From Candidatus Krumholzibacteriia bacterium (GTDB taxonomy: Bacteria; Krumholzibacteriota; Krumholzibacteriia; Krumholzibacteriales; Krumholzibacteriaceae): a DNA stretch of 64,000 nucleotides. The translations under genes and the position numbers were made by a program. The notes under the pieces were generated by a model. That model did no database searches and was not told where the DNA came from. It saw nothing but the letters and a program-made list of their open reading frames with translations. Each line of letters begins with the position of its first letter. Position 1 is the stretch's first letter. The DNA is taken from positions 320,001 through 384,000 of the forward strand of contig CAWIIQ010000003.1 in NCBI GenBank assembly GCA_963836185.1, in the 5' to 3' direction. Positions 1,290 through 52,192 of the stretch are shown in pieces.

Positions 1290-4200
1290 ATGGGAATCAC
1301 GATCGGAATAGACGTCGGAACGGTCAGCACGAAGTGCGCCCTCTTCGGAGCGGCCGAGCGGCTGAAACAGATCGCCGCCTCGGGCGACGCTCTCTGCAGC
1401 GTCTTCGACTATGCGCCCGAGCCTGATAAGGCCGTGGCCGTTTCCGGTTACCGCCGCATACAGGGCAAGCCGCTCGACGCGGTAGTCGAGCAGCTGCGTG
1501 AGTTGACCGGGCTGCTCGAGCCGGGCGAGCTGCAGGAGCGTCGTCATAACCGGATCATCCGGCAAGCTCGTAGGCGAGAGTCTCGGCATTCCCGTCGAGA
1601 ACGAGTTCAAGGCCGCCGCGACCGGGATCGGGCGGATATACCCCGATGTAAAGAACATATTCGAGATGGGCGGCGAGAACTCGAAGTTCATCCGCGTCGC
1701 CTGCGAGGAAGATGTCACCGGGATCATCGACTACGAGACGAACGGCGACTGCGCCGCCGGCACCGGATCGTTCATGGACCAGCAGTCGACCAGGCTGCAG
1801 TTCGGAATAGAAGAGGTCGGCGGACCTCGTCCTCGGCACCGACCGCTCGCCGAAGATCGCGGGCCGCTGCAGCGTCTTCGCCAAGTCGGACATGATCCAC
1901 GCCCAGCAGAAGGGGTACAAGCCCGAAGAGGTTCTCAAGGGGCTCTGCGAGGCGGTGGCGAGGAACTTCAAGAGCAATATCGTAAAGGGCAAGGACGTGC
2001 ACGGCAGGACCGCCTTTATAGGCGGAGTCGCGCTGAACACCGGCGTCGCGAACGCGGTGCGGGATGTCTTCGAGCTCAGCGAGGACGATTTCTTCGTTCC
2101 CGAGGAGGGCGTCTTCGCCGGCGCGATCGGCGCGTCTATCATAGCGGCCGGCAATGGTAACGGCTTCGATGAGGGTGAGTTCCTCCGCGTGCTCGAGAGC
2201 GGCGGCGGATCGTACGGCAAGTCGTTCCCGTCGTGGAAGGTGCTGACCCGCGACAAGGTCAGCTTCCTGCGCGACCGCGTGAAGGAATACTCGTTCGAGG
2301 GCAGGACACTCCCGGTCAATGCCTACCTCGGAGTCGATGTCGGCTCGGTGAGCACCAACCTCGTCCTCGTCGACGACAACGGCGACATGATCAAGGAGAT
2401 CTACCTGCGCACACAGGCCCGTCCTATAGAGGTCGTCAGCAACGGGCTCCACGCGCTTCGCGACGAGCTCGCCGACAAGGTCACTATCAGGGGCGTCGGC
2501 ACGACCGGTTCGGGCAGGGAGCTCGTCGGCGAGCTGATCGGCGCCGACACGATCAATGACGAGATCACCGCGCACAAGACGGGCGCGACATTCATAAGCG
2601 ACACGCTCCTCCACAAGAAGGTCGATACGATATTCGAGATCGGCGGGCAGGATTCAAAATACATCAGGATAGACGACGGTATCGTCACCGACTTCACGAT
2701 GAACGAGGCCTGCGCCGCCGGCACCGGCTCGTTCCTCGAGGAGCAGGCGGAGAAGCTCGACATAAATATCATCGACGAGTTCGCCGAGAAGGCGTTCGCC
2801 TCGAAGAAGCCGCTGCGTCTCGGCGAGCGGTGCACGGTATACATGGAGCAGGACGTCTCGGCCTACATGAAGCGCGGGGCGGAGAAGGACGACATCATCG
2901 CCGGGCTGGCCTACTCGGTCGTCCAGAACTACCTCAACAGGGTCGTGCGAGGCCGGCGCATCGGCAACGTGATCTTCTTCCAGGGCGGAACGGCATACAA
3001 TGACGCCGTCGCCGCGGCCTTCAGCGAGGTAGTCGGGCGCGAGATCATCGTCCCGCCGCACAACGGCGTCATCGGCGCAGTCGGCGCGGCGCTGCTCGCG
3101 AAAGACAAGGTCATTTCTCTCGAGCTGCAGACGACTTTCCGGGGCTACGAGATAGAGAACATCGATTACAGCATCCGCGAGTTCACCTGCAAGGGGTGCA
3201 CGAACTTCTGCGACATCCAGGAATTCACCGTCGAAGGAGAACGCACCTACTGGGGAGACAAGTGCAGCGACAAGTACCGCAAACGGGCCAAGGTGCCGAA
3301 GAAGCCGGTCATCGCCGACCTCATGGCGGTATACGACGAGCTTCTCGAGCGGGACTACCTTCCCGAGGCGGCTGCCGCCGCGGGGCTGGAGATACCCGGC
3401 CCACCGGCGAAGTTCCGGATCGGGATACCCAGGGCGATGTACTTCTTCGACCGCCATCCCTTCTGGAGCACCTATCTGCGCGCTATGGGTATGGAAGTGG
3501 TGATCTCGAAGGCGACGAACAAAAGAATCGTCCACCAGGGCGTCGAAGCGGTCGTCTCCGAGCCGTGCTTCCCGATCCAGGTGGCGCACGGCCACGTCGA
3601 GGCTCTTCTCGAGGAGGAAGGGCTCGACAGCATCCTCGTGCCGAACGTCATCGACGCTGAGACCGATATCCCCGAGATCAACTCGTACGTCTGCCCGTGG
3701 GGGCAGACCCTGCCGTTCGTCATCAGGAGCATGCCCTCGCTGCGCGGCCGAGAGGATTTCATCTCGGCGCCGCTCGTTCACTTCAGAGAGGGCGAGAAGT
3801 ATGTCGAGAAGGAGCTGCGCTCTTTCGCCGCGAAGTTCGGCATCGGCAAGAAGCTCCACAGGAAGGCTGTGAAGGCAGCGTACATAGCCCAGGAGACATT
3901 CCGCGGGGCGGTTCGTGCGGAGGGCGCGAAGGCGCTCAGGACCCTCGACGAGACGGGCGAGCAGGGGATCATCCTGGTCGGGCGCCCTTACAATATCGTT
4001 GACCGCGAGGTTAACCTCAACGTTCCCGGCAAGCTCCGTGATTACTACGGCGCCAACGTGATTCCTATCTTCTTCCTCGATCTCGAGGGGATCGGTATCC
4101 GCGACCTCGGCCCGAACATGTTCTGGAACTACGGCAGGAAGATCCTCCAGGCGGCCCGCTACGCCGCGCAGAGGGAGAACCTGCACCTGATATATGTCAC

Positions 4201-33561: not shown

Positions 33562-35388
33562 ATGTCTGGACGCACACGCACCATCACTATCGCCGCGCTG
33601 GTCGCGGTGGCGTTCATCGCGGGGTTCCTGATCCGCGGGGGAGGCGAAAGCCCCCCTGCTGACGGCGGCGCCGCACGGCAGGCTGCGGCGGAGGTCTGGA
33701 CCTGTTCGATGCATCCTCAGATCAGGCTTCCCGAAGCGGGCAAGTGCCCGATCTGTTTCATGGACCTGATTCCCGTCGACCAGGGAGCGGGAGAGGATCT
33801 CGGGGACAGGCAGCTTGCGATGAGTGAGTCGGCGATAAAGCTCGCCGAGATCGAGACGCGGCCTGTCCTGCGCCGGCCGGCCGAGGCGGTGGTCCGCGCC
33901 GTCGGCAGCGTAGCACTCGACGAGACGCGCATGTCGGAGATCACTGCATGGGTCCCCGGACGCATCGAGAAGCTCATGGTCAACTTCACGGGCGCTTCGG
34001 TGCGAAAGGGCGATCCGCTCGCCGAGATCTACTCCCCGAGCCTGGTCAGCGCGCAGGAGGAACTCCTGCAGGCCAGGCGCGCATATGACGCGGCGCCCGA
34101 AGGGGACAGCCCGGCGCGTTCGACCCTGGATGCGGCACGTGAGAAACTCAAACAGTACGGGCTTTTTGGCAGCCAGATAGAGGCGATAGAGAGGGCTGGA
34201 AGTGTCAGAAGGCAGATCGTGATCTACGCTCCCTCGTCGGGAGTCGTCATCGACCTGGCCGTCAAAGAGGGACAGTACGTAAAGACGGGCAGTACCCTGA
34301 TGAGGATCGCCGACCTGTCAAAGGTCTGGGTGACGCTGAGGGCTTTCCAGAGCGATCTGCCGTTGATAAAGCGGGGGCAGGAGGTCAGCTTCAGTTCCAC
34401 GGCGCATCCTGGCGAGACATTCCCCGGGGAAGTCGTGTTCGTCGACCCTGTCCTTGATCCGAAGACGATGACGGCCGGAGTGAGAGCCGTCGCATCGAAC
34501 GAAGAGGGTAGCCTGAGGCCCGACATGTTCGTCAGCGGGGAGATATCTGTTCCCCTTGATACTGACGGCATGGATCCCCTCATTATCCCCGCCACGGCGC
34601 CGATGCTGACTGGAAAGAGGGCCGTCGTATACGTTCGGCTTCCGGGAAGCACCGGGCCGGTATTCGAGGGAAGGGACGTTGTTCTCGGTCCGAAGGCGGG
34701 AGACAGTTACGTCGTCCTCTCAGGGCTAGAGGAAGGCGAGCTGGTCGTCGTCAACGGCGCCTTCAAGATCGACAGCGAACTGCAGATCAGGGCGCAGCCC
34801 TCGATGATGAACCCGGACGGGGATGCTGCGCCGGTCCTGCATGAACATGGCGGGCATGAAACGCCGCCCGCTCGCGTTTCCGCCGAAGGGGCGGATGCGG
34901 AGAGGCCTTACGGTCACATCACGGCGGGCTTTGTCATGCTGAAGGAACTGGAACCTGTCTACGACGCCTACTTCGACGTCCAGATGGCTCTTGCCGGGGA
35001 CGACCACGCGAAAGCAGTTTCAGCTTTCAAGGATCTTGTAAAGAAGACCGCCGATGCCGATATGACAGCCTTCAAGCACCCGGTCCACGAATTCTGGATG
35101 GGTGTCTCATCGCGGATAGTCAAGTATTCCGCCGAAGGCAGCAAGTCCCGGGATATGGAGGAGGCGAGGGATTCGTTCTACCACTTGTCAAAGGCTGTCA
35201 TCGAGCTCCATGACAGGATCGGTCATGCAGAGGGAGACTTCTACCTCACCTTCTGCCCTATGGCCCGCGACAACACGGGGGCGTTCTGGATCCAGGAGGT
35301 CGACACGGTATACAACTCGTTCTACGGCGCAGTCATGCTGCGCTGCGGTTCGATCGAGAAGAAACTTCCATCGGCGGGGGGTGAGTAA
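33562..35388 (+). CDS. cusB: CusB-type RND periplasmic adaptor with N-terminal heavy-metal-binding domain and C-terminal DUF3347-like domain
   Basis: WTCSMHPQI....GKCPICFMDL; YSPSLVSAQEE, ADLSKVW, LRPDMF; C-terminal FCPMA...GAFW...N.FYG..MLRCG. Confidence 0.88.
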   Translation: MSGRTRTITIAALVAVAFIAGFLIRGGGESPPADGGAARQAAAEVWTCSMHPQIRLPEAGKCPICFMDLIPVDQGAGEDLGDRQLAMSESAIKLAEIETRPVLRRPAEAVVRAVGSVALDETRMSEITAWVPGRIEKLMVNFTGASVRKGDPLAEIYSPSLVSAQEELLQARRAYDAAPEGDSPARSTLDAAREKLKQYGLFGSQIEAIERAGSVRRQIVIYAPSSGVVIDLAVKEGQYVKTGSTLMRIADLSKVWVTLRAFQSDLPLIKRGQEVSFSSTAHPGETFPGEVVFVDPVLDPKTMTAGVRAVASNEEGSLRPDMFVSGEISVPLDTDGMDPLIIPATAPMLTGKRAVVYVRLPGSTGPVFEGRDVVLGPKAGDSYVVLSGLEEGELVVVNGAFKIDSELQIRAQPSMMNPDGDAAPVLHEHGGHETPPARVSAEGADAERPYGHITAGFVMLKELEPVYDAYFDVQMALAGDDHAKAVSAFKDLVKKTADADMTAFKHPVHEFWMGVSSRIVKYSAEGSKSRDMEEARDSFYHLSKAVIELHDRIGHAEGDFYLTFCPMARDNTGAFWIQEVDTVYNSFYGAVMLRCGSIEKKLPSAGGE

Positions 35389-35393
35389 CGGGG

Positions 35394-38300
35394 ATGCAGG
35401 CCGGCGGACCTCACGATAAGGGGTTTTCGATACTCGACAAAGTGATCAGGTTCTCTCTCGAGAACAAGCTCGTCGTCCTGATCGTCCTGCTCGCTGTCGT
35501 ACTGTGGGGCGTGATGGTCGCTCCTTTCGACTGGCAGATCGATTTTCTTCCCCGCGACCCCGTTCCCGTTGATGCTATCCCAGATATAGGCGAGAACCAG
35601 CAGATCGTATTCACACGGTGGATGGGGCGCTCGCCCCGTGACATAGAGGACCAGGTCACATATCCGCTGACAGTTTCCCTTCTTGGCATTCCAGGCGTGA
35701 AGACGATACGGAGCTACTCGTACTTCGGATTCTCGAGTGTCTACGTGATATTCGAAGACGACGTCGAGTTCTACTGGTCGCGTTCGAGGGTGCTCGAGAA
35801 GCTCGCCTCGCTCGCGCCGGGGACGATGCCGGCAGGAGTCAGCCCGACACTCGGGCCCGACGCCACGGCCCTCGGGCAGGTCTTCTGGTACACGCTCGAG
35901 GGGTACGGCGATGATGGACAGCCCTCTGGAGGATGGGACCTCGACGAGCTGCGCTCGGTGCAGGACTGGACGGTGCGCTATGCTTTGATGTCGGCCGACG
36001 GCGTAGCGGAAGTCGCCTCGATAGGCGGCTTCGTGCGCGAGTACCAGGTAGACGTCGATCCCGACGCGATGTTCGCCTACGGGATAGGGCTCGGCCAGGT
36101 CTACGACGCCGTTCGGATGTCGAACATCGATACCGGCGCGAGGACGATCGAGATAAACCGGGTCGAGTACGTGATCCGCGGACTGGGATTCGTGAAAAAC
36201 GTCGGCGACCTCGAGAAGACGGTGATCGTCGAACGAGGCGGCGTGCCTGTCACCGTCGGCGATATCGCAACGGTGGCGCTCGGGCCGGCGGCGCGGCGCG
36301 GGGCGCTCGACAAGGGGGGCGCCGAGGCAGTCGGCGGCGTGGTAGTCGTCCGCTACGGCGAGAACCCTCTCGCGGCGATAAAGAACGTCAAGGCGAAGAT
36401 CGCCGAGATAGCGCCGGGGCTTCCGAAGAAGACCCTCCCCGACGGGACCGTCTCGCAGGTTCGCGTCGTCCCCTTCTACGACAGGACGGGGCTGATCTAC
36501 GAGACGCTCGGCACTCTCAACACGGCGCTGATCGACGAGATCCTCGTGACGATCATCGTAGTGCTCGTGATGGTGATGAACCTTCGCGCGGCCATGCTGA
36601 TATCGGGGCTTTTGCCGCTGACCGTGCTTGCCGTATTCATCGCGATGAAGAGTTTCGGTGTCGACGCGAACATCGTCGCCCTCTCGGGGATCGCGATCGC
36701 TATCGGGACGATCGTTGACATGGGAATAGTGATCACCGAGAACATCATGCGGCATCTCGCTGCGGCCGGGCCGGAGGAGTCACGTCTCGAGGTCATATAC
36801 AGGGCCGCCTCCGAGGTCGGAAGCGCCGTATTGACGGCTATCGCAACGACGGTTATCTCGTTCCTCCCCGTATTCGCGATGACCGCTGCCGAGGGAAAGC
36901 TCTTCAAGCCGCTTGCGTGGACAAAGACATTCGCACTTGTCGCTTCGGTCCTCGTGGCGCTCGTGATGATACCGCCGGCGGCGCACATGATCCTGCGCGG
37001 CGAGAGAAGCCGCGGGGAAAAGCGGAGCTACTGGATGGGACTGATATTGATCGGCGCTTCGGTATTCATCTTCTCGATCGGGCTGAGGCTCGTCGCCGGG
37101 GCCCATCTCTTCATGGGTGTCTGGCTTCTTCTCGGGCATTATCTACCGGCAGGGATTCGGGAACGTATCTCCAGTCACTGGACCCACATCACGATCGGCG
37201 CGGTCATAGTCCTGCTCGCCTCGCACTGGCGGCCCCTGGGATACGAAAGCCATTACATCCTCAACCTGCTCTTTGTCGGCGGACTTATCGGCGGGCTGCT
37301 GATACTGTTCAAGCTCTTCTATCGCGTATATGAGCCGGCGCTGAGGTGGTGCCTCTCGCACAGGAAGATCTTCCTCTCGTTCACCGTTGCGCTCGTTCTT
37401 CTCGGAGGCTTCGTCTGGAAGGGATTCGACTATTTCGCCGGTTTCATGCCGAAGCCGGTAAAGGCATCGGCGCTCTATATCGTCGCTCCACCATACCTTC
37501 CCCGGACTGGGGAAGGAGTTCATGCCGTCGCTCGATGAGGGGTCGTTTCTATACATGCCGACGACGATGCCGCACGCTTCGATAGGCGAGGCTCTCGACG
37601 TGCTGCAGAAGCAGAACATGGCATTCACAGCCATCCCCGAGATAGAATCGGTCGTCGGCAAGATAGGACGCGCCGATACACCGCTCGATCCGGCTCCGCT
37701 GTCGATGGTCGAGACCATCATCAATTATCAGGTCCGAATACGTCACTGACGCTTCAGGCCATGTAATGCGCTTCCGATACGATAATAGTAACAATGTTTT
37801 CTTCCGCGGCGCCGATGGGAGCCTTATCCCCTACAGCCGAGGGAAACCCTTCAGGAACTGGCGCGATCACATAAGGACCACCGATGACATATGGGACGAG
37901 ATCGTAAAGGCCGGGGCGATCACCGGCACGACCTCAGCCCCGAAGCTTCAGCCGATAGAGACGCGGATAGTGATGCTCCAGTCGGGGATGCGCGCTCCGA
38001 TGGGGGTCAAGGTCAGGGGGCCGGACCTCGATTCGATCGAAAAGTTCGGGCTCGAGATCGAGCGCCTCCTCAAACAGGTTCCGCAGATAGAGCCGGCGGC
38101 AGTGCTTGCCGACAGGATCGTCGGGAAACCGTATCTAGAGATCGTCATCGACCGCGAGAAGATCGCCAGGTACGGATTGTCCATGAGAGCGGTCCAGGAT
38201 GTGATCGAGGTGGCGATAGGCGGAAAGAATGTGACCACTACCGTTGAAGGCAGGGAGAGGTATCCAGTGCGTGTCCGTTATCCGCGCGAGCTTCGCGGCG

Positions 38301-39163
38301 ATATAGACGACCTCGGCCGCATCCTCGTTCCGGCGCCCGGTGGCGCGCAGGTCCCGCTCGGTGAACTTGCCGAGGTGCTGTTCGTGCGCGGCCCGATGGT
38401 GATCAAGTCGGAGGACACCTTCCTCACCGGGTACGTGATTTTCGACGGGAGGGACGGATATGGAGAGGTGGAGGTAGTAGAGGCGGCCCGCTCATACCTG
38501 CTCTCGCGTGTCGAGGCGGGGGAACTGGTTGTTCCCGCCGGTGTGAGCTGGGCATTCGCCGGCAGCTGGGAGAACCAGGTCCGCTCGGAGAAGAAGCTCG
38601 CCGTCGTCCTTCCGATGGCGCTGATGGCGATATTCCTTATTCTATATCTCCAGTTCAGGAGGGTCTCCACTACGTTACTGGTCTTCTCCGGGATATTCGT
38701 CGCCTGGGCCGGCGGGTTCATCATGCTCTGGCTCTACGGCAGGGGATGGTTCCTCGATTTTTCCGTCTTCGGCATTCACATGCGTGAGCTCTTCAACATC
38801 AGGCCGTACAATCTCTCGGTGGCAGTGTGGGTGGGGTTCCTTGCCCTCTTCGGCATTTCGAGCGACGACGGCGTCCTGATGTCGACCTATCTCGAGCAGA
38901 CCTTCGCGAAGAAAATGCCTGGCAGCCGAGGTGAGATCCGCGACGCGGTCGTCATGGCGGCGATGCGGCGGGTCAGGCCCGCACTTATGACGTCCGCGAC
39001 GACTATCCTGGCTCTTATCCCCGTGCTGACCTCTACCGGGAAGGGCTCCGACATCATGGTCCCGATGGCGATCCCCTCGTTCGGGGGGATGACCGTCGTT
39101 ATGATCTCTGTCTTCCTCGTCCCCGTCCTCTACAGCATCGTGGCCGAGCGGAGGCTGAGATAA
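35394..39163 (+). CDS. cusA: CusA/CzcA family heavy-metal RND permease (frameshifts near 37490 and 37730)
   Basis: VDAIPDIGENQQIVFT.W.GRSP..IEDQVTYPL, LGPDATALGQ, SGIAIAIGTIVD, EFMP.LDEG, QPIETRIVML, R.RPALMT and PMAIPSFGG. Confidence 0.93.
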
Positions 39164-44008: not shown

Positions 44009-45171
44009 ATGAATGACAGGATCGTCGAACACACCGAATCAGATATTCGCAGCCGGTTGCTTATGAGCAGGGGTGCCCAGCGCCACAGGCGACTGGGTAC
44101 CCTTGCCGGTAATACAGTCCTGATCACGATAGCGTCGAGCTCACTGATCGCTCTTCTCTTTATCTTCTACTTCATAGTCAAGGATGCCATTCCCTTCTTT
44201 CAGATCGAGGGGATCAAAGAGTTTTTCACGAGCTCCCGCTGGTATCCTTCGAGGGAAGACGCGGAGTTCGGCGCCCTGGCGATATTCGTCGGGAGCGCGC
44301 TTGTCACGCTCGGGGCGATCGTCGTTGCGGTGCCGATGGGCGTGCTCGCAGCACTTTGTCTCAGCGATATCCTTCCCTTCTCGGTCCGCCAGGTCGTCAA
44401 GCCGGTGATCGAGATGCTCGCGGCGATCCCCTCGGTCGTTTACGGATTCTTCGCGCTCGTCGTTTTCGCCCCGCTCCTGCAGGAGAAGGGCGGCGGGATG
44501 CTGTCGGTCGGGGCGATGATCGTGCTCGTGCCGCTATCATCTGATCGGGATCGGTGTTGCGAGCGATCTCGATCGGAACGAGATTCAAAGAGAGCAGGCG
44601 CGGAATCGCGAAGATCGCTTCCGCAGCCGTCATGGCAGCCGTCATCGCGCTGGGGCTCTGGCAGATCAGCAGTTTCCTCGGCGGCCTGAAGATAGGCAGC
44701 GGCACAAACGCGCTCAACGCCTCGATTATTCTCGGCATCATGGCGCTGCCCACCGTGGTCAGCGTATCGGAGGATGCTCTGAACGCTATCGGCAGGGAGC
44801 TGCGCGAGGGAAGCTACGCCCTCGGAGCCACGCGGGCGGAGACTCTACTGAAAGTCGTACTGCCGGCGGCAAAGAGCGGAATACTAGCCGCGGTCATTCT
44901 GGGCGTCATGCGGGCCATCGGCGAGACGATGGTCGTCTGGATGGCCTCGGGCAACGCCGCGAGGATACCCCAGCCGATATTCAACTACCTCGAGCCGATA
45001 AGGACGCTGACGGCGACGATCGCCGGGGATATGGGCGAGGCCGATCACGTTACAGGCTCGGCGAGGTATCACGTACTCTTCGCGATGGCGTTCTGCCTGC
45101 TCGTCTTCGCGTTCGTATCGAATCTTGTCAGCGAGATGATCCTGAGAAGATCGAGAAAGAAGCTGGGCTGA
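44009..45171 (+). CDS. pstC: Phosphate ABC transporter permease PstC (frameshift near 44540)
   Basis: EMLAAIPSVVYG, EGSYALGAT.AET, MRAIGETMVV and TLTATIA..MGE. Confidence 0.92.
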
Positions 45172-45172
45172 T

Positions 45173-46519
45173 ATGGAACTGAGGACTCGCAGGATGCTCG
45201 ACAGGTCATTCACCGCGATAGGCGTGATCGCTATCGTGCTGATGGCGGTGTCCCTCGTCATCCTGCTGCAGCCGATCGTCTGGCGGGGAGCGGGCGCCTT
45301 TATCTTCAGGGAGACAGTTGAGAACAGGAAGCTCAACCTCGATCATTTCGGACGCGGAAGCCGCGCGAAACTCGAAATAGACATCACGGAGACCGAGGCG
45401 GCCAGGAAGCCGGTCTATGACATGCTTGCAATGTTCGATGCGGAGATGGAGGAGGGTGGGTCTGCATTCAGGAGACAGTATCGAAGCGAATACTCTGAGT
45501 TCCGGGAGATGCTGGCCGAACTCCTCGGGCCTTTTCCCGGCGACAGGGAGCCGGTCCTCATACGCGACCAGTACGGCCAGACGAGGTGGGACAGGACGCA
45601 GGTAAAACTTCACCAGATATTATTTGTCGAGGAATACGACTACTCCGATCCTGACCGGATGGGCGTGAAGATCGAAAAGCCCAGGTCCGCACTGTTCGAA
45701 TCGACATCACTCGCACCCCTTTTCGTGTATCTCGAAGATAACATAGAGCAGATGATGCGCCCGAAGATGACATTCTACTGGCGTTTTCTCTTCGACGAAT
45801 CAAAGGACGCGCATTTCTTCGGCGGGATCTGGCCCGAGATGCTCGGGACCTTCTACCTCGCCTTCGGCGCCATGCTCTTTGCTGTGCCTCTCGGGATAAT
45901 CACCGCCATATACCTTGCCGAGTACGCCGGAACGGGAAGGTTCGTGAGCCTGCTGCGCACATGTATCAGCTCGCTCGCGGGAGTGCCGAGTATCGTATTC
46001 GGCCTCTTCGGTCTCGCCTTCTTTATAAATACGATGGGTTTGGGGAACGGGAAGAGTGTTCTGGCTGGATCGCTGACGCTCGCCTTCCTCGTGCTCCCGA
46101 CAGTGATCCGCGCCTCCGAGGAAGCGATCCTCGCAGTGCCGCGTATATACAAGGAAGCGGCGATGAGCCTGGGCGCGGGTAAATGGCATACGATAATCTC
46201 TGTGATACTTCCGGCGGCGCTTCCGGGGATCCTGACGAGCATAATCATCAGTCTCGGCAGGGCTGCCGGCGAAACGGCGCCTATCATATTCACGGCAGCC
46301 GTCAGTGTGGGGAGGCCGCTTGCCTTCTGGCAGACGCTCAGCCAGCCCTCCCCGGCCCTGTCGTGGAATATCTACAATCTCGCAACCGAGCACGAGGCAG
46401 TCGACGAGATCCGCCACGTTCAGTACGGGATGGTGTTGACCCTCGTATCGATGGTCCTCCTCCTCAACCTGGCAGCGGTCATAATGAGGGCCCGCATATC
46501 GAAGAGATTGAGAAGCTGA
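45173..46519 (+). CDS. pstA: Phosphate ABC transporter permease PstA with a large soluble insertion
   Basis: GGIWPE..GT, AIYLAEY, LAGVPSIVFGLFG and GRAAGETAP. Confidence 0.93.
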   Translation: MELRTRRMLDRSFTAIGVIAIVLMAVSLVILLQPIVWRGAGAFIFRETVENRKLNLDHFGRGSRAKLEIDITETEAARKPVYDMLAMFDAEMEEGGSAFRRQYRSEYSEFREMLAELLGPFPGDREPVLIRDQYGQTRWDRTQVKLHQILFVEEYDYSDPDRMGVKIEKPRSALFESTSLAPLFVYLEDNIEQMMRPKMTFYWRFLFDESKDAHFFGGIWPEMLGTFYLAFGAMLFAVPLGIITAIYLAEYAGTGRFVSLLRTCISSLAGVPSIVFGLFGLAFFINTMGLGNGKSVLAGSLTLAFLVLPTVIRASEEAILAVPRIYKEAAMSLGAGKWHTIISVILPAALPGILTSIIISLGRAAGETAPIIFTAAVSVGRPLAFWQTLSQPSPALSWNIYNLATEHEAVDEIRHVQYGMVLTLVSMVLLLNLAAVIMRARISKRLRS

Positions 46520-46536
46520 GTCATTAAACGAAGAAT

Positions 46537-47391
46537 ATGAATCGGAAGGATGAAAAGACGATGTCACAGGTAGCGGAAAGGACCGGCGGGGTAGCACTCG
46601 GAATCACTGAGTTCCGGGATAATCCGCTGACGGACAGGCGGCCGTTGATCGGATCGAAAAAATTCTCCATCTACTATGGCGATAACGCTGCCGTGAAGGA
46701 TGTCTCGTTCGATATCCCGGAGGGACTGGTGACAGCTGTCATCGGGCCGAGCGGGTGCGGCAAGAGCACCTTCCTTCGGGCGATCAACAGGATGAACGAC
46801 CTGATCCCCGGTTGTCATGCGGAGGGAGAACTTACTCTCGACGGACAGGACCTCTACGCTCCCCAGGTTGACGTAGTATCCCTTCGTAAGATGGTCGGGA
46901 TGGTCTTCCAGAAGCCGAATCCTTTCCCGAAGAGCATATTCGATAATATCGCCTACGGGCCGAAGATCCACGGGACCAGCGACAGAAGAAGACTAGGTGA
47001 GATAGTCGAAAAGAGTCTCAGGCAGGCAGCATTGTGGGACGAGGTCAAGGACAGGCTCGACGACAATGCGCTCGGCCTCTCGGGAGGACAGCAGCAGAGG
47101 CTCTGCCTGGCCAGGGCGGTCGCGGTCAACCCTAAGGTCCTTCTTATGGACGAACCTGCATCGGCACTCGATCCGCGCTCCACTTCGAGGATAGAGGACC
47201 TGATCTCGGAACTGAGGGGCGAGTACACGATTGTAATTGTAACTCACAATATGCAGCAGGCAGCGAGAGTCTCCGACCTGACCGCCTTCTTCTACGAAGG
47301 ACACCTGATCGAGTACGGGGAGACAAAGCAGATATTCACCAATCCGGCGGAAAGGCAGACCGAGGATTATATAACGGGAAGATTCGGGTAA
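46537..47391 (+). CDS. pstB: Phosphate ABC transporter ATP-binding protein
   Basis: [48 protein letters not shown] and YITGRFG. Confidence 0.97.
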
Positions 47392-47467
47392 TATCACGGA
47401 ACAGGCGATGCAACCGAAGAAATAAGTAATGTTCCGGGGCAACAGATATGATCAAGGGAGTGTAAAG

Positions 47468-48133
47468 ATGTCAAAACACATACTCAGAGAGATCGCCGCT
47501 TTGAAGAAGGAGATACTGGCTCTCGGAGCGGCGGCCGAAGAGATCCTGTATAAGGCTATGAAATCGCTCGAAGAGCGGGACAAGGCACTGGCTGAGCAGA
47601 TCATGAAGGAGGATGCCGACATCGACCAGATGGAGGTGGAGATCGAGGAAGACTGTCTGAAGGTTCTGGCCCTTCACCAGCCTGTCGCGCGCGATCTTCG
47701 GCTGATCATAGCTATCCTGAAGATCAACAACGATCTCGAGCGGGTCGGCGACCTTGCGGTCAATATTGCCGAAAGGGCGGCCTTTCTCGCGACGAAGGAG
47801 AAGGCCGAGATCCCGGCCGACTTCATGAAGATGTCCGAGATCTCGAGGGACATGCTCAAGAAGAGCCTCGATGCACTCGTAACCGAGGATACTGCACTGG
47901 CGCACAAGGTCTGCGGGATGGACGACGCTGTCGACGCGATCAACCGCGAGATGTACATCCTCATACAGAACGAGATAAAGAGGGATCCTTCGAAGATGGA
48001 GAACCTGATACATCTGCTCTCCGTTTCGAGGCATCTCGAGAGGGTCGCCGATCTGGCGACTAACATCGCGGAAGATGTGATCTACATGATCGATGGAGAG
48101 ATCGTCCGGCACAAGGTGGAGGACTACAGGTAG
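47468..48133 (+). CDS. phoU: Phosphate signalling complex protein PhoU
   Basis: QPVARDLR, DLERVGDLAVNIA and LERVADLATNIAEDVIY. Confidence 0.96.
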   Translation: MSKHILREIAALKKEILALGAAAEEILYKAMKSLEERDKALAEQIMKEDADIDQMEVEIEEDCLKVLALHQPVARDLRLIIAILKINNDLERVGDLAVNIAERAAFLATKEKAEIPADFMKMSEISRDMLKKSLDALVTEDTALAHKVCGMDDAVDAINREMYILIQNEIKRDPSKMENLIHLLSVSRHLERVADLATNIAEDVIYMIDGEIVRHKVEDYR

Positions 48134-48144
48134 GGGAATGATCT

Positions 48145-48168
48145 ACTCCCGGCACCGGGAGTGGTTTT
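48145..48168 (+). terminator. Intrinsic terminator after phoU
   Basis: ACTCCCG-GCAC-CGGGAGT followed by GGTTTT. Confidence 0.55.
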
Positions 48169-48304: not shown

Positions 48305-49711
48305 CTATTTCAGCAGTACGATCTTCCGGACGGCCGTCATCCGTCCAGCTTCATCCTGACAAAATATACTCCCGATGACGCCGCGCGGCCCGCGTCGGTG
48401 GCGCCGTTCCATATGGCCTCGTGAGACCCCGCCTGGTAATGTCCCGCCGCGAGGGTCCTTATCCTCCTGCCTGCCGCGTCGTAGATCGTCAGTTCGACCG
48501 TGCCGTTCTTTTCCAGCGAGAAGGGAACGGTCGTCGCCGGGTTGAACGGGTTGGGATAGTTGGCGCCGAGCGAGACGGCTGGGGGGAGCTCCACCGATGA
48601 GAATGCCGGTTCGCTGAAGCAGATCTGGAACGGGGGCAGCCCCGTGCTCTTCAGCGAGGGTGTGATCAGCGTATCTGCCGACGTATCCCAGATCCATATC
48701 CCTGGCGCCGTCTCGGTCTGGTCGGCGACGAAGAGCTCTCCGTCGGGAGAGATCTCTATGTCGTTGAGGACCCAGCCGGGTGGTGAGTATATCGGCGGCC
48801 CCGCTGTCCCGGCCGATGGGTCGAAGGGGACGATGTCGGTCGTAAAGGACGGGGTTGCGAGGATAAGGTACCCCTTGTCCGCTGAAAGTATCTCGAACTC
48901 GTTGATGTCTCCCCCTGCCGCGGACTCCGTTATCATGAATCCAAGGGAGCTCATCGTGACGGGATCGATCATCTCGATCCCGCCGTCGTTGAAACCCCAG
49001 AGCCCGGCACATCCAACCAGTATGGTGTACCCGTCTGAAGCGAATTTCAGGTCGGTGTAGGGGTTTGAAGCCGTCAGCGGAATCGCCTGCACACCGGGGC
49101 TTCCCGGGTCTACGTCTATCAGGGTGTCGGCTGCCGCGTCGATGACGGCGATATAGCTGTCCCCGACAGGCATCCAGTAGTTGTTGCGGTCGATCCTCTG
49201 TATCGACACAAATAGGATGCCGTCCTTGATCAGCATGTGGTCCATCTCGCATAGCCCGTCGCCGTCGGCGAAGCCTGAAAGGTCGATCGTGCCGAGATGC
49301 GTTCCCGTCGAAGGATTCATGATGAGCAGGTCGTTCGAATCGTACCTCGATACGAATGATCTTGCCGGGTGAGACGAAGGCGATATCCTTAGGATTGGTC
49401 CCGTTTCCCGCAGAATGCTGTGACAGCGTCGAGAAACCGTCCTCCGGATCGAGTATCTGGATATTGTCCGCTCCTGCCCTGTTGATGACGTATACCAGCC
49501 CGCCGTGCCATCTCGCCACCGCGTCGCTGTGTATCGGAGCGACGCAGATGTCGGTCGTATAGCCCGGATCGAGCCAGATGACCGAAGCGCAGCCTGAGGA
49601 GTAGTCGGTCGTCGTGATGAACGCGAACTCCGTTGCGGTTACCGTGGAAAAGAGGATAGTTGACGCGGCTATGATGGTTGCCGCGAATAATGCTGCGTGC
49701 CGGATCTTCAT
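48305..49711 (-). CDS. Secreted YncE/BtuG-like beta-propeller protein with T9SS-A/FlgD-type CTD (frameshifts near 49360 and 48340)
   Basis: Sec signal without a lipobox; propeller-like blades (YVINR..ADNI.ILD, TNPKDIAFV, IAVID, GGIEMID); ANYPNPFNP...SGVYFVRM...VRKIVLLK; 14 bp downstream of btuB. Confidence 0.75.
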   Translation of the reverse strand: MKIRHAALFAATIIAASTILFSTVTATEFAFITTTDYSSGCASVIWLDPGYTTDICVAPIHSDAVARWHGGLVYVINRAGADNIQILDPEDGFSTLSQHSAGNGTNPKDIAFVSPGKIIRIEVRFERPAHHESFDGNASRHDRPFRLRRRRRAMRDGPHADQGRHPICVDTEDRPQQLLDACRGQLYRRHRRGSRHPDRRRPGKPRCAGDSADGFKPLHRPEIRFRRVHHTGWMCRALGFQRRRDRDDRSRHDELPWIHDNGVRGRGRHQRVRDTFSGQGVPYPRNPVLYDRHRPLRPIGRDSGAADILTTRLGPQRHRDLSRRRALRRRPDRDGARDMDLGYVGRYADHTLAEEHGAAPVPDLLQRTGILIGGAPPSRLARRQLSQPVQPGDDRSLLAGKERHGRTDDLRRGRQEDKDPRGGTLPGGVSRGHMERRHRRGPRGVIGSIFCQDEAGRMTAVRKIVLLK

Positions 49712-49725
49712 CTGTGTTTCTCCTG

Positions 49726-51861
49726 TCAGTTGCTGTATCCGATAGTCGCGAAAAGCGTCCTGCCCGGCAGGGGGAATCCGCTTACGTCGTATATCCGCTC
49801 GTCACTGAGGTTGTGTCCCTCGAGCGACAGCGAGATCCCGTGCGCGGGGGACCGGAGCACGAGGATAAGGTCATGTATCTTTCTCTCTCCCGACCGGGCG
49901 AGGTTCGCCCTGTCGAGGTAGTTGCTTCCCATGTAATGGAATTCCCATGTAACGCTCCATCTCCTGCTGAAAAGCTCTGAGCTCAGAGATGCCTCGTCCC
50001 GCGGTCTTCCGGGCAACTCGTTCCCGTTGTAGTAGGGAATGGGGCTCGTATCCTTCGAATCGAGGCGCGTGTAATTTACAGACAGCCTCAGGTAATCCGC
50101 GATCAGCCCGGAGGCGGAGATCTCGAATCCGCGTATCGATGCAGACCCGATATTTCTCGGCTTGACCGTGTGCTTGGAGTTCTGGAAGAAGAGGATCAGG
50201 TCATCCATCTCGTTGTCGAGGTAGACCGCTTCGAAGCGCGGACGTTCGATCTTCCAGAGCCGCTTTCCGGAGCAGACGATTCCGATATCCCTGTTCGTTC
50301 CTCTCTCGGGCCCGAGGTCGGGTGAACCGGTCACCGTTCCCGAGTTGCCGAACATCTCGTAGAAGGTCGGGAGCCGGTAATGCTTTCCCCAGTTTCCCTT
50401 GATCGTGATCCAACGCGCGGGAAAGGCCCTGAATCCAGCTGAAGGTGTCGTCTCATCCCGTTCGACCGGACCCTGCTCGATCGGGGGGAGCCAGGGGAAA
50501 TTCGGTTCATCATAGAACTCGCTGCGGCTCCATTCGCGTCTCAGTCCACCTGAGACAAAGAGGATCTCACTGACCACGGCGAGCTCACCGGAGGCGGAGG
50601 CAGTGACAGTGCTCCGCTTGCGCTCAGGCCCTTCTGATGGATAGGGCAGGAGGTCGCCTGGCCGGAAACTCTCGCCGCGTCCCTCGAAAAACGCCTCTAT
50701 CGAAAGCCTGGCGGCAGGCACGAACATTCTCGACCGGATGTTGCCGCCGGCTGAGACGATACGGTTGTCGGTCGACTGGCGCAGGAGACCTATATCCCCG
50801 TGGGGGTCGTCAAAGCGGTCGGCCGTCCATGAATAGAACGCTGTGCCGTCGAGATGGATCTTCCTTCCGGCCAGTGGTGACGGTTTGAGTTTCAGGTAGC
50901 CTATGCGTCTCTCGCGCTCAGAGCGCGCCGTTGACGACTGGTTCGAGCCTATCCCGGGGATCCCGCCCTCTCGGGACACCATGCTGAAGTTGAGGGAGAG
51001 GTCATCGAATCCACGCAGCGCAGCTCCGAGTTTCCCCGCGGCGTTCCATCTTGTGAAGTCACTGTTCATGCGCAGCGCCTCGGTATCGTCCCCGGGGTTC
51101 ATGGGAGTCCCGTTGTCGTCGGTGAACGGGTAGTCGCCCATCGACTCGAGATACCCTCCGCTGAGACGGAGGGCGAGAGGGGAGGATGGTGTTCTCACCG
51201 CCGCCGTAAGTCTACGCGTCCCGAACGATCCTGCCGAGCCGTGAGCCTGGAGCCAGGATCCATCGCCTCCATGTGCGGCCGTAACAAGGTTGACCGTACC
51301 GCCGATCGACGATCCGCCGAATCCGGTCGGGCTCGCGCCGCGATATATCTCTATCCTGTCGAGGCCGCCAGTCGAGATGTCGTTGAGGTCGGTTACCCCC
51401 GAATGAGGGTCGTTGAGCGGGACTCCATCGAGGTAGAACCGTACCTGGGAAGACGATGAGCCGCGTATGGACATCGTGGCGAACGAGCCCAGGCCGCCTT
51501 CCCGCCCCACATGTACGCCTACAGACCTTGCAAGGATAGAGGCGGTATCCTCGACCCTGTGGCGGCGCGACGAGAGGTTCACGACGGCGGAGAAACCGCT
51601 TCTGCTCATGATGTCCTCTTCGGGACCGATACGATCGGCCTCGACGAGGATCTCCGGCGCCCAGAAGAGGGTGTCGAGAATCCCTTCCCTTGAGGCTGGA
51701 GAATCGCCTGCGGCTTTTTTCGATGCGGCTGGAGATGTCTCAGACTTTTTTGATGTGGCGGAGCCGGGCGCCGGTGTCAGCACAGATATGGCGATGCATG
51801 CTGCAAGGCAAAGCATGGCCGCAGGTGCGGCGCCGCGGATTCTCGGCGATCGAGGAAACAA
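49726..51861 (-). CDS. btuB: TonB-dependent receptor, BtuB-like cobalamin transporter
   Basis: GGAGG RBS then TTG at 51861; TonB-box-like EILVEA, plug SIRGSSSSQV...DGVPLN, RIEIYRG...GGTVNL; barrel ending NL.D..Y...GFPLPGR; preceded by a cobalamin riboswitch. Confidence 0.85.
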   Translation of the reverse strand: MFPRSPRIRGAAPAAMLCLAACIAISVLTPAPGSATSKKSETSPAASKKAAGDSPASREGILDTLFWAPEILVEADRIGPEEDIMSRSGFSAVVNLSSRRHRVEDTASILARSVGVHVGREGGLGSFATMSIRGSSSSQVRFYLDGVPLNDPHSGVTDLNDISTGGLDRIEIYRGASPTGFGGSSIGGTVNLVTAAHGGDGSWLQAHGSAGSFGTRRLTAAVRTPSSPLALRLSGGYLESMGDYPFTDDNGTPMNPGDDTEALRMNSDFTRWNAAGKLGAALRGFDDLSLNFSMVSREGGIPGIGSNQSSTARSERERRIGYLKLKPSPLAGRKIHLDGTAFYSWTADRFDDPHGDIGLLRQSTDNRIVSAGGNIRSRMFVPAARLSIEAFFEGRGESFRPGDLLPYPSEGPERKRSTVTASASGELAVVSEILFVSGGLRREWSRSEFYDEPNFPWLPPIEQGPVERDETTPSAGFRAFPARWITIKGNWGKHYRLPTFYEMFGNSGTVTGSPDLGPERGTNRDIGIVCSGKRLWKIERPRFEAVYLDNEMDDLILFFQNSKHTVKPRNIGSASIRGFEISASGLIADYLRLSVNYTRLDSKDTSPIPYYNGNELPGRPRDEASLSSELFSRRWSVTWEFHYMGSNYLDRANLARSGERKIHDLILVLRSPAHGISLSLEGHNLSDERIYDVSGFPLPGRTLFATIGYSN

Positions 51862-51947
51862 GTCAATCCTCCTGCAGCCCGGCGGAATCGCTCCGCCACG
51901 GGCAGGCAGTCCTCGATGATCGGAAAATGGAAACTTATCAGGAGGGC

Positions 51948-51986
51948 AAGAAAAACCCTCCGCCTCGTGGTGCGAGAGCGGAGGGT
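51948..51986 (-). terminator. Riboswitch expression platform: intrinsic terminator
   Basis: Minus strand ACCCTCCGCTCTCGCACCACGAGGCGGAGGGT followed by TTTTCTT, between the aptamer and the btuB start. Confidence 0.75.
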
Positions 51987-52039
51987 ATAAACTACCTCTC
52001 CCTATCCTCTCAATCCTCGAAGAGGGCCAGGGAACAAAT

Positions 52040-52146
52040 CCTCCAGGCAGGTATCCTGACTTACGGCTCCGGGGCCGATCACAGTGGCGGGTCCGTGAGG
52101 GATTCTCACCCTCTTCCCTTTTCATCCCCGATGGGACGCCTGAAGT
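52040..52146 (-). ncRNA. Cobalamin riboswitch (compact, class-II-like)
   Basis: Minus strand CAGGCGTCCC-ATC-GGGGATG AAAAGGGAA GAGGG-TGAGAAT-CCCTC ACGGACCC GCCACTG TGAT CGGC-CCCGGA-GCCG TA AGTCAGGATACCTGCC TGG: AGGGAA, T-loop, GCCACTG and B12-box elements in canonical order. Confidence 0.92.
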
Positions 52147-52162
52147 TATTTCATGTGGCCGG

Positions 52163-52192
52163 AGTCTACCCCGCTCCACGGAAAGGTGTCAA
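52163..52192 (-). promoter_or_regulatory. Sigma70 promoter of the B12 operon
   Basis: Minus strand TTGACA, 18 bp, TAGACT, immediately upstream of the riboswitch. Confidence 0.65.

Follow-up and report, generated by a model that had tools for sequence, protein, structure and literature searches.

The locus described here lies on the minus strand of a 64,000-nucleotide stretch (the window) of contig CAWIIQ010000003.1, from the Candidatus Krumholzibacteriia bacterium assembly GCA_963836185.1. It consists of a cobalamin (B12) riboswitch followed by two genes, one for a BtuB-like TonB-dependent transporter and one for a BtuG-like seven-bladed propeller that ends in a sorting domain of the type IX secretion system (T9SS). 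All operon elements are on the minus strand, and positions given without a contig or locus name are those of the window. A sequence-only reading of the same DNA had listed a promoter, a cobalamin riboswitch, a terminator, a TonB receptor and, 14 bp further on, a propeller-like protein with a Cys-free Sec signal and a PNPFNP...KIVLLK sorting domain, in an operon devoid of btuFCD; every one of these elements was confirmed on the minus strand.

The leader begins with a sigma-70-like promoter match, TTGACA-18-TAGACT (52163..52192), which is a consensus match only; two such sites occur in the region against 1.1 expected. The Rfam scan then placed one cobalamin riboswitch at the operon (52029..52158), an RF00174 aptamer of the short form with a reduced variable region, which spans the full model (1-189) and scores 84.1 bits against a gathering score of 31.5 (E 2.9e-19). 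It is followed by a G+C-rich, intrinsic-terminator-like hairpin and then UUUUUCUU (51948..51985), the predicted expression platform; its stem and U run are visible in the minimum-free-energy and centroid folds of the leader, and a simple terminator scan did not pick it up. The two genes are separated by a spacer of 14 nucleotides, the stop codon of the transporter ending at 49726 and the next ATG lying at 49711. None of btuFCD is found in the operon; the genes next to it form a pst-phoU set that runs towards it on the plus strand.

The first gene (49726..51816) is intact and encodes a TonB-dependent transporter of 696 amino acids, in which the Plug domain scores 60.8 bits and the TonB-dependent barrel 115.4 bits. 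When a profile of 21 orthologues was searched against the PDB, the three BtuB proteins of Bacteroides thetaiotaomicron led the matches (BtuB1 1e-49, BtuB2 1.1e-45, BtuB3 2.7e-44), followed by BtuB of E. coli (5.5e-40). Judged by these best matches, the transporter is BtuB-like without being a member of the BtuB equivalogs.

The second gene (48305..49711, about 468 codons) encodes the propeller together with its sorting domain and, as seen from its translations and their alignment to intact homologues, contains two frame changes that divide it into three pieces. The first, in the ATG frame, runs from 49711 to about 49358 and holds the signal peptide and the first ~118 residues; the second, in the next frame (49356 to 48341), holds at least 327 residues; the third returns to the ATG frame for the final 12 residues (MTAVRKIVLLK and the stop). 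The predicted Sec signal peptide is about 27 residues long (49631..49711, ...VTA/TEF). Inspection of its translation, MKIRHAALFAATIIAASTILFSTVTA, reveals a positive n-region, a hydrophobic core and a VTA/TE site, and the aligned homologues have a similar N-terminus. It is free of Cys, as had been claimed, and no lipobox Cys was seen in the signal peptide of the window propeller or in those of the inspected phylum homologues. At the other end, the T9SS type A C-terminal sorting domain (YPNPFNP ... KIVLLK, 48305..48558) exceeds the cut-offs of both FlgD_ig (42.4 bits, cut-off 27) and TIGR04183 (28.5 bits, cut-off 23). PF18962 gives 27.8-29.2 bits (cut-off 27) in four of five intact homologues and 23 bits on the window fragment, which stops short of the last 12 residues. 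Propeller and sorting domain are parts of one gene, since the intact homologues, of 464-479 amino acids, contain both.

The frame breaks were placed by alignment to these intact homologues, which are 82-88% identical: the first is an extra base at 49357 (49357..49357), within GKI|FVSRY, and the second a missing base between 48340 and 48341 (...KLDG|MTAVRK...). Base 49357 is exactly absent from the contig of a ~91% identical relative. Contigs of the same strain, identical to the window, span neither site, and 48340/48341 is bridged by no contig compared. If both breaks were real, the window copy would be a true pseudogene and the strain would no longer make the propeller. Such an explanation could draw on the presence of two indels in one gene, neither of them within a long homopolymer, and on the absence of the propeller from 42 of the 208 phylum genomes. 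To set against this, open reading frames (ORFs) of at least 200 amino acids from the syntenic regions of two same-genus genomes were searched against this genome: of 24 distinct neighbours, each intact in both relatives, 4 are split across frames here, with six frame changes in total, and SprA is split alike, in an assembly of six contigs. This rate is much too high for genuine decay and typical of uncorrected indel errors. Moreover, the coding sequence is otherwise well kept, with 88% protein identity to the closest intact homologue. Because 4 of the 24 neighbouring genes, and SprA too, are split likewise, the two frame breaks are probably assembly errors, and we regard genuine loss of the gene as quite unlikely.

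Several further observations concern these broken frames. The ATG frame of the propeller gene is open over its whole length of 468 codons, 339 of which, in the middle, are off the true frame; in eight relatives the same shifted frame contains 2-10 stops. Its openness in the window copy is probably due to chance. Programmed frameshifting was considered for the propeller gene and dropped, since unrelated neighbouring genes break likewise. Among the split genes are one of ~1264 amino acids (35385-39157, plus strand), with two frame changes relative to its intact orthologues in two same-genus genomes, and one of 386 amino acids (44009-45168, plus strand), immediately before the pst genes, with one. 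Just beyond the window there is another split gene (G000:C3:385926-387783).

The relation of the propeller to BtuG is seen both in its predicted fold and in its family profile, and it was for a comparison of this kind that the sequence-only reading, which spoke of a propeller-like protein, had called. The propeller part is covered by no Pfam or NCBIfam family. An AlphaFold2 model of the intact homologue P0007, built from a 111-sequence alignment, has a mean predicted local distance difference test score (pLDDT) of 90.5 and a predicted template modelling score (pTM) of 0.75. When this model was searched with Foldseek against the PDB, nine of the ten top matches were BtuG2 or BtuG3, with template modelling (TM) scores on the target of 0.74-0.78 and root-mean-square deviations (rmsd) of 3.4-3.7 Å. 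The best of all was 8bmy_A (E 4.4e-15, target TM 0.76, rmsd 3.7 Å, 18% identity); further down stood an archaeal S-layer propeller (rank 4), BtuG1 (ranks 15 and 17) and the siderophore lid XusB (rank 22). The profile of the 111 homologues (A2) likewise reached BtuG3 (8okv and 8p97, ~6e-7) and BtuG2 (8bmy, 8bmx, 8bn0 and 3dsm, ~3e-6) in the PDB, the next propeller other than BtuG appearing at E 0.29, leaving aside matches of FlgD, PorU and PorZ to the tail domain. The identity of the BtuG entries is given in passages of PMC10404256. Going by the predicted model and the profile searches, the propeller family has a BtuG-like fold and probably a remote sequence homology to BtuG.

A common fold would also be compatible with a propeller that is a lid or accessory of the transporter without binding corrinoids, serving another ligand or as a mere shield. 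The low identity to BtuG would allow for this, as would the existence of lids with this propeller fold for other ligands, the ferrichrome-binding XusB being one that Foldseek retrieved. On the other hand, it is the BtuG chains that lead by both sequence profile and fold, and the linkage to the riboswitch is kept across three phyla. In addition, W182 of P0007, which is nearly invariant in the family, aligns to the Trp of the 'CWSY' motif of BtuG3 and, mapped by spacing, would correspond to Trp194 of BtuG2, a residue that lines the pocket for the upper ligand of B12 according to part of PMC10404256; a pocket Trp thus appears to be conserved. The family also has many invariant Asp and Glu residues, which agrees with the negative charge that the same source describes for the B12 site of BtuG2. 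We therefore consider a lid that does not bind corrinoids to be very improbable.

Export of the propeller by a T9SS requires that the genome encode one, and the search for sprA, porU and porV that the sequence-only reading had proposed returned the first two and a candidate for the third. PorU (554 bits against a cut-off of 420) and SprA (308.6 bits against 200) exceed their curated cut-offs, and a PorV-like gene adjoins PorU, at 112 bits and thus under its cut-off of 250; for GldK, only sub-threshold matches were obtained in the genome. At 46 further places the genome matches the PorU model in its C-terminal sorting-domain part alone. PorU was found in 101 of 101 sampled phylum genomes, in 90 of them above cut-off. 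From these genes and the sorting domain we predict that the propeller is exported via the T9SS and that its sorting domain is cleaved by PorU. In its architecture the protein resembles known type A cargo (TIGR04183 / PF18962, for example the gingipains of P. gingivalis), with a Sec signal, an immunoglobulin-like C-terminal domain of ~80 amino acids and PorU, SprA and PorV-like genes present in the genome; it differs from them in being a nutrient-capture propeller that has a TonB-dependent transporter as its partner, and in its host, which is outside Bacteroidota. The SprA-like translocon gene itself (L009-L013, G000:C2:331131-335548) is divided into two open frames of 1275 and 751 amino acids, probably by an assembly frame error.

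The arrangement is also a conserved one. The propeller part is present in 166 of 208 phylum genomes and in 111 of the 125 high-quality ones, as a single match in almost all, and RF00174 is present in 143 of 151 sampled genomes. Co-occurrence was assessed among the matches listed, 150 each for propeller and riboswitch (19 and 8 further matches stood outside these), which yielded 112 genomes with both. In 101 of these 112 the riboswitch lies 2197-3058 nucleotides (median 2535) upstream of the propeller on the same contig and strand; in ten the two are on different contigs and in one they are 425 kb apart. Synteny of riboswitch, btuB and propeller with sorting domain, which had been suggested as a check, extends through the phylum, and linkage of the propeller to a riboswitch is also seen in loci of two other phyla (see below). 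In all 20 loci compared, from eight of nine families, a transporter of 683-767 amino acids is directly followed by a propeller of 456-529 amino acids with a sorting-domain-like tail (the length range excepts L127, whose longest frame over-extends upstream). The tails carry NPF[NS]P in 19 loci and PNPANP in one, and no evident lipobox was seen among the 20. The closest named homologues come from metagenome-assembled genomes (MAGs) of Krumholzibacteriota and Latescibacterota.

Overall, we consider it probable that the locus is a riboswitch-run operon of two genes, in which a BtuB-like transporter is paired with a BtuG-fold propeller that is exported by the T9SS and catches corrinoids for the transporter. 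The results support the interpretation offered by the sequence-only reading, namely a BtuG analogue that travels by a T9SS-like route. Of the observations that it had named as refuting, neither the lack of a propeller fold, nor homologues without linkage to cobalamin riboswitches, nor a sorting domain in a gene of its own, nor a genome without T9SS components was encountered. We infer the binding of B12, the docking on the transporter (this by analogy) and the fate after export. With plentiful B12, the aptamer-bound leader would favour the terminator and the operon would be off. With scarce B12, both genes would be made; Sec would take the propeller across the inner membrane and SprA would then take it across the outer one, and PorU would remove its sorting domain. 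The protein would remain on the cell surface, either held by its new C-terminus or just docked on the transporter. There its propeller face would bind corrinoids and hand them over to the transporter, in the manner of BtuG and BtuB in Bacteroides. A C-terminal sorting signal would thereby have taken over the tethering from an N-terminal lipid.

The closest known counterpart of such an operon is the BtuB-BtuG system of Bacteroides thetaiotaomicron (BtuG1/2/3; PDB 8BMX, 8BMY, 8OKV, 8P97, 8BLW, 3DSM; PMC6143338, PMC10404256), with which it shares a cobalamin riboswitch, a TonB-dependent transporter and an adjacent seven-bladed propeller. The likeness extends to the individual proteins, the propeller of the window's family being best matched by BtuG and the transporter by BtuB1-3. 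While BtuG has a lipobox Cys, the window propeller has neither this nor a lipoprotein export signal and carries instead a plain Sec signal at its N-terminus and a T9SS type A sorting domain at its C-terminus. The two systems also differ in belonging to different phyla, in sharing only 17-18% identity and in that the operon described here is without btuFCD or btuH-type genes.

A different fate of the exported protein is conceivable, in which the propeller is released as a soluble cobalaminophore that diffuses, binds corrinoids and returns to the transporter, as haemophores do for haem. The propeller is without a lipid anchor, and Flavobacterium releases many of its cargoes with type A sorting domains into the medium, both of which speak for release; in what the BtuG literature contains on affinity, B12 is also bound tightly enough for action at a distance. 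The gene order points the other way, as in all 20 loci compared the transporter gene is immediately followed by the propeller gene, which fits a stoichiometric partner, and a freely diffusing binder would be a public good. Furthermore, part of PMC10404256 describes that B12 leaves BtuG in Bacteroides only when pushed by a loop of BtuB in the closed complex, so that docking would be needed anyway. Release of the propeller thus seems unlikely to us, and we continue to favour a surface-held partner of the transporter.

A number of points weigh against a T9SS-exported, corrinoid-catching partner. Identity to BtuG is just 17-18%. Pfam DUF5074, which is possibly the BtuG family, has no match at E <= 1 in five intact homologues, and only one of 60 family representatives matches it, weakly (19.9 bits, cut-off 27.2). 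The transporter, for its part, stays far under the BtuB equivalog cut-offs (TIGR01779 104.1 against 599.7, NF007926 79.7 against 836). The structural model is that of P0007, which is 84% identical over the 342-amino-acid middle fragment of the window and was modelled instead of the broken window copy. The source reads of the assembly were not found, the best run listed containing 0.20 of the sampled words, and no RNA run was listed, which leaves real frameshifts in this strain a small probability. The propeller is also absent from the 42 phylum genomes mentioned above and is therefore dispensable in some lineages that keep the riboswitch: in one genus (g16) of the window's family it occurs in none of 16 genomes, yet a cobalamin riboswitch is present in all ten sampled. 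Moreover, we know of no study on whether type A sorting-domain cargo is anchored or released after export outside Bacteroidota. Finally, the hinge of the BtuG2 lid is formed by its N-terminal lipid and linker, according to a portion of PMC10404256, and the window propeller has neither.

Relatives of the propeller in other phyla show that the same module may be attached in more than one way. A search of relatives' loci that had the sorting-domain motif among its patterns was dominated by the latter, as 75 of the 77 loci had the sorting domain only in common; the propeller was matched in just two, L014 and L015. The first of these, from Tectomicrobia, has a riboswitch, a transporter and a propeller, 40% identical over residues 32-367, in which a lipobox (LLGC) is present and the sorting domain absent. 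Lipoprotein members of this kind share with the window operon the same propeller after riboswitch and transporter, and differ from it in their LLGC lipobox and in a protein that ends right after the propeller, without a sorting domain. The second, from Binatia (L015:180-7200), has a riboswitch, two extra secreted ORFs, a transporter and a propeller without a sorting domain.

In a wider search, a profile of the propeller alone retrieved 3575 cluster representatives when E was limited to 0.001 and 947 when it was limited to 1e-30. Among the best 149 of them, 133 are complete; 73 of these end at the propeller, with a lipobox-like Cys in at least 41, and 60 have a C-terminal tail of at least 60 amino acids, with a match to FlgD_ig or Por_Secre_tail at E <= 0.001 in 40. 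With both anchor classes among the representatives, the family therefore exists in lipid-anchored and in T9SS-tagged forms. One might go further and propose that BtuG-type capture is ancient and widespread with BtuB-like transporters far beyond Bacteroidota, that its anchor has been swapped between lipid and T9SS, and that in phyla with a T9SS the exported propeller is a released, re-docking cobalaminophore; as a whole, this proposal strikes us as doubtful.

Two side observations concern these relatives. In the Tectomicrobia MAG, ORFs that read as cobT- and cobS-like in translation come after the lipoprotein propeller (L014:3167-9700), and the locus would be a combined operon for corrinoid uptake and remodelling. 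The propeller of L015 has a repeat-bearing N-terminal extension that looks dockerin-like by eye and is followed by an ORF that reads as TonB-like; the extension may be a third way of attaching the propeller.

The rest of the genome is in keeping with a need for imported corrinoids. A second cobalamin riboswitch (96.6 bits; L149:6889-7097, G000:C1:164888-165096, minus strand) stands before a 956-amino-acid fusion of NrdD with its radical S-adenosylmethionine (SAM) activase, where it would impose B12-dependent repression on a B12-independent enzyme. Five genes have a B12-binding domain above cut-off, CbiC was not found in the genome (92.5% complete), and one BtuF-like binding protein and one FecCD permease are encoded elsewhere in it. 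Going by these genes, the B12 gene content of the genome fits a corrinoid scavenger.

As to the immediate surroundings of the operon, the phosphate-transport set that converges on it (44009-48133, plus strand) comprises a PstA-like permease, a PstB ATPase and a PhoU-like gene, as read from their translations. A terminator-like hairpin at 48143-48164 lies between this set and the B12 operon.

The sequence-only reading had held the arrangement to be uncharacterised, and our literature searches, which left supplements outside their scope, fit this statement. The only literature match joining BtuG with type IX secretion or T9SS was PMC12578637, which merely cites a BtuG paper in its reference list, and a search with the phylum names gave no mention of BtuG among the matches listed. 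Passages of PMC6143338 (Wexler 2018), PMC10404256 (Abellon-Ruiz 2023) and a 2024 preprint (bioRxiv 10.1101/2024.02.16.580637) call BtuG or lipoprotein-capped transporters exclusive to Bacteroidetes. Against this background, the capture module is likely to work also outside Bacteroidota, with a different surface attachment, and the same module would form a near-universal, single-copy operon in another, uncultured and sediment-associated phylum. The T9SS, in place of lipoprotein export, would represent a second route by which the lid of a transporter can be placed at the cell surface. For environmental communities, in which the exchange of corrinoids influences which members can grow, the module thus offers B12-scavenging candidates that can be tested.

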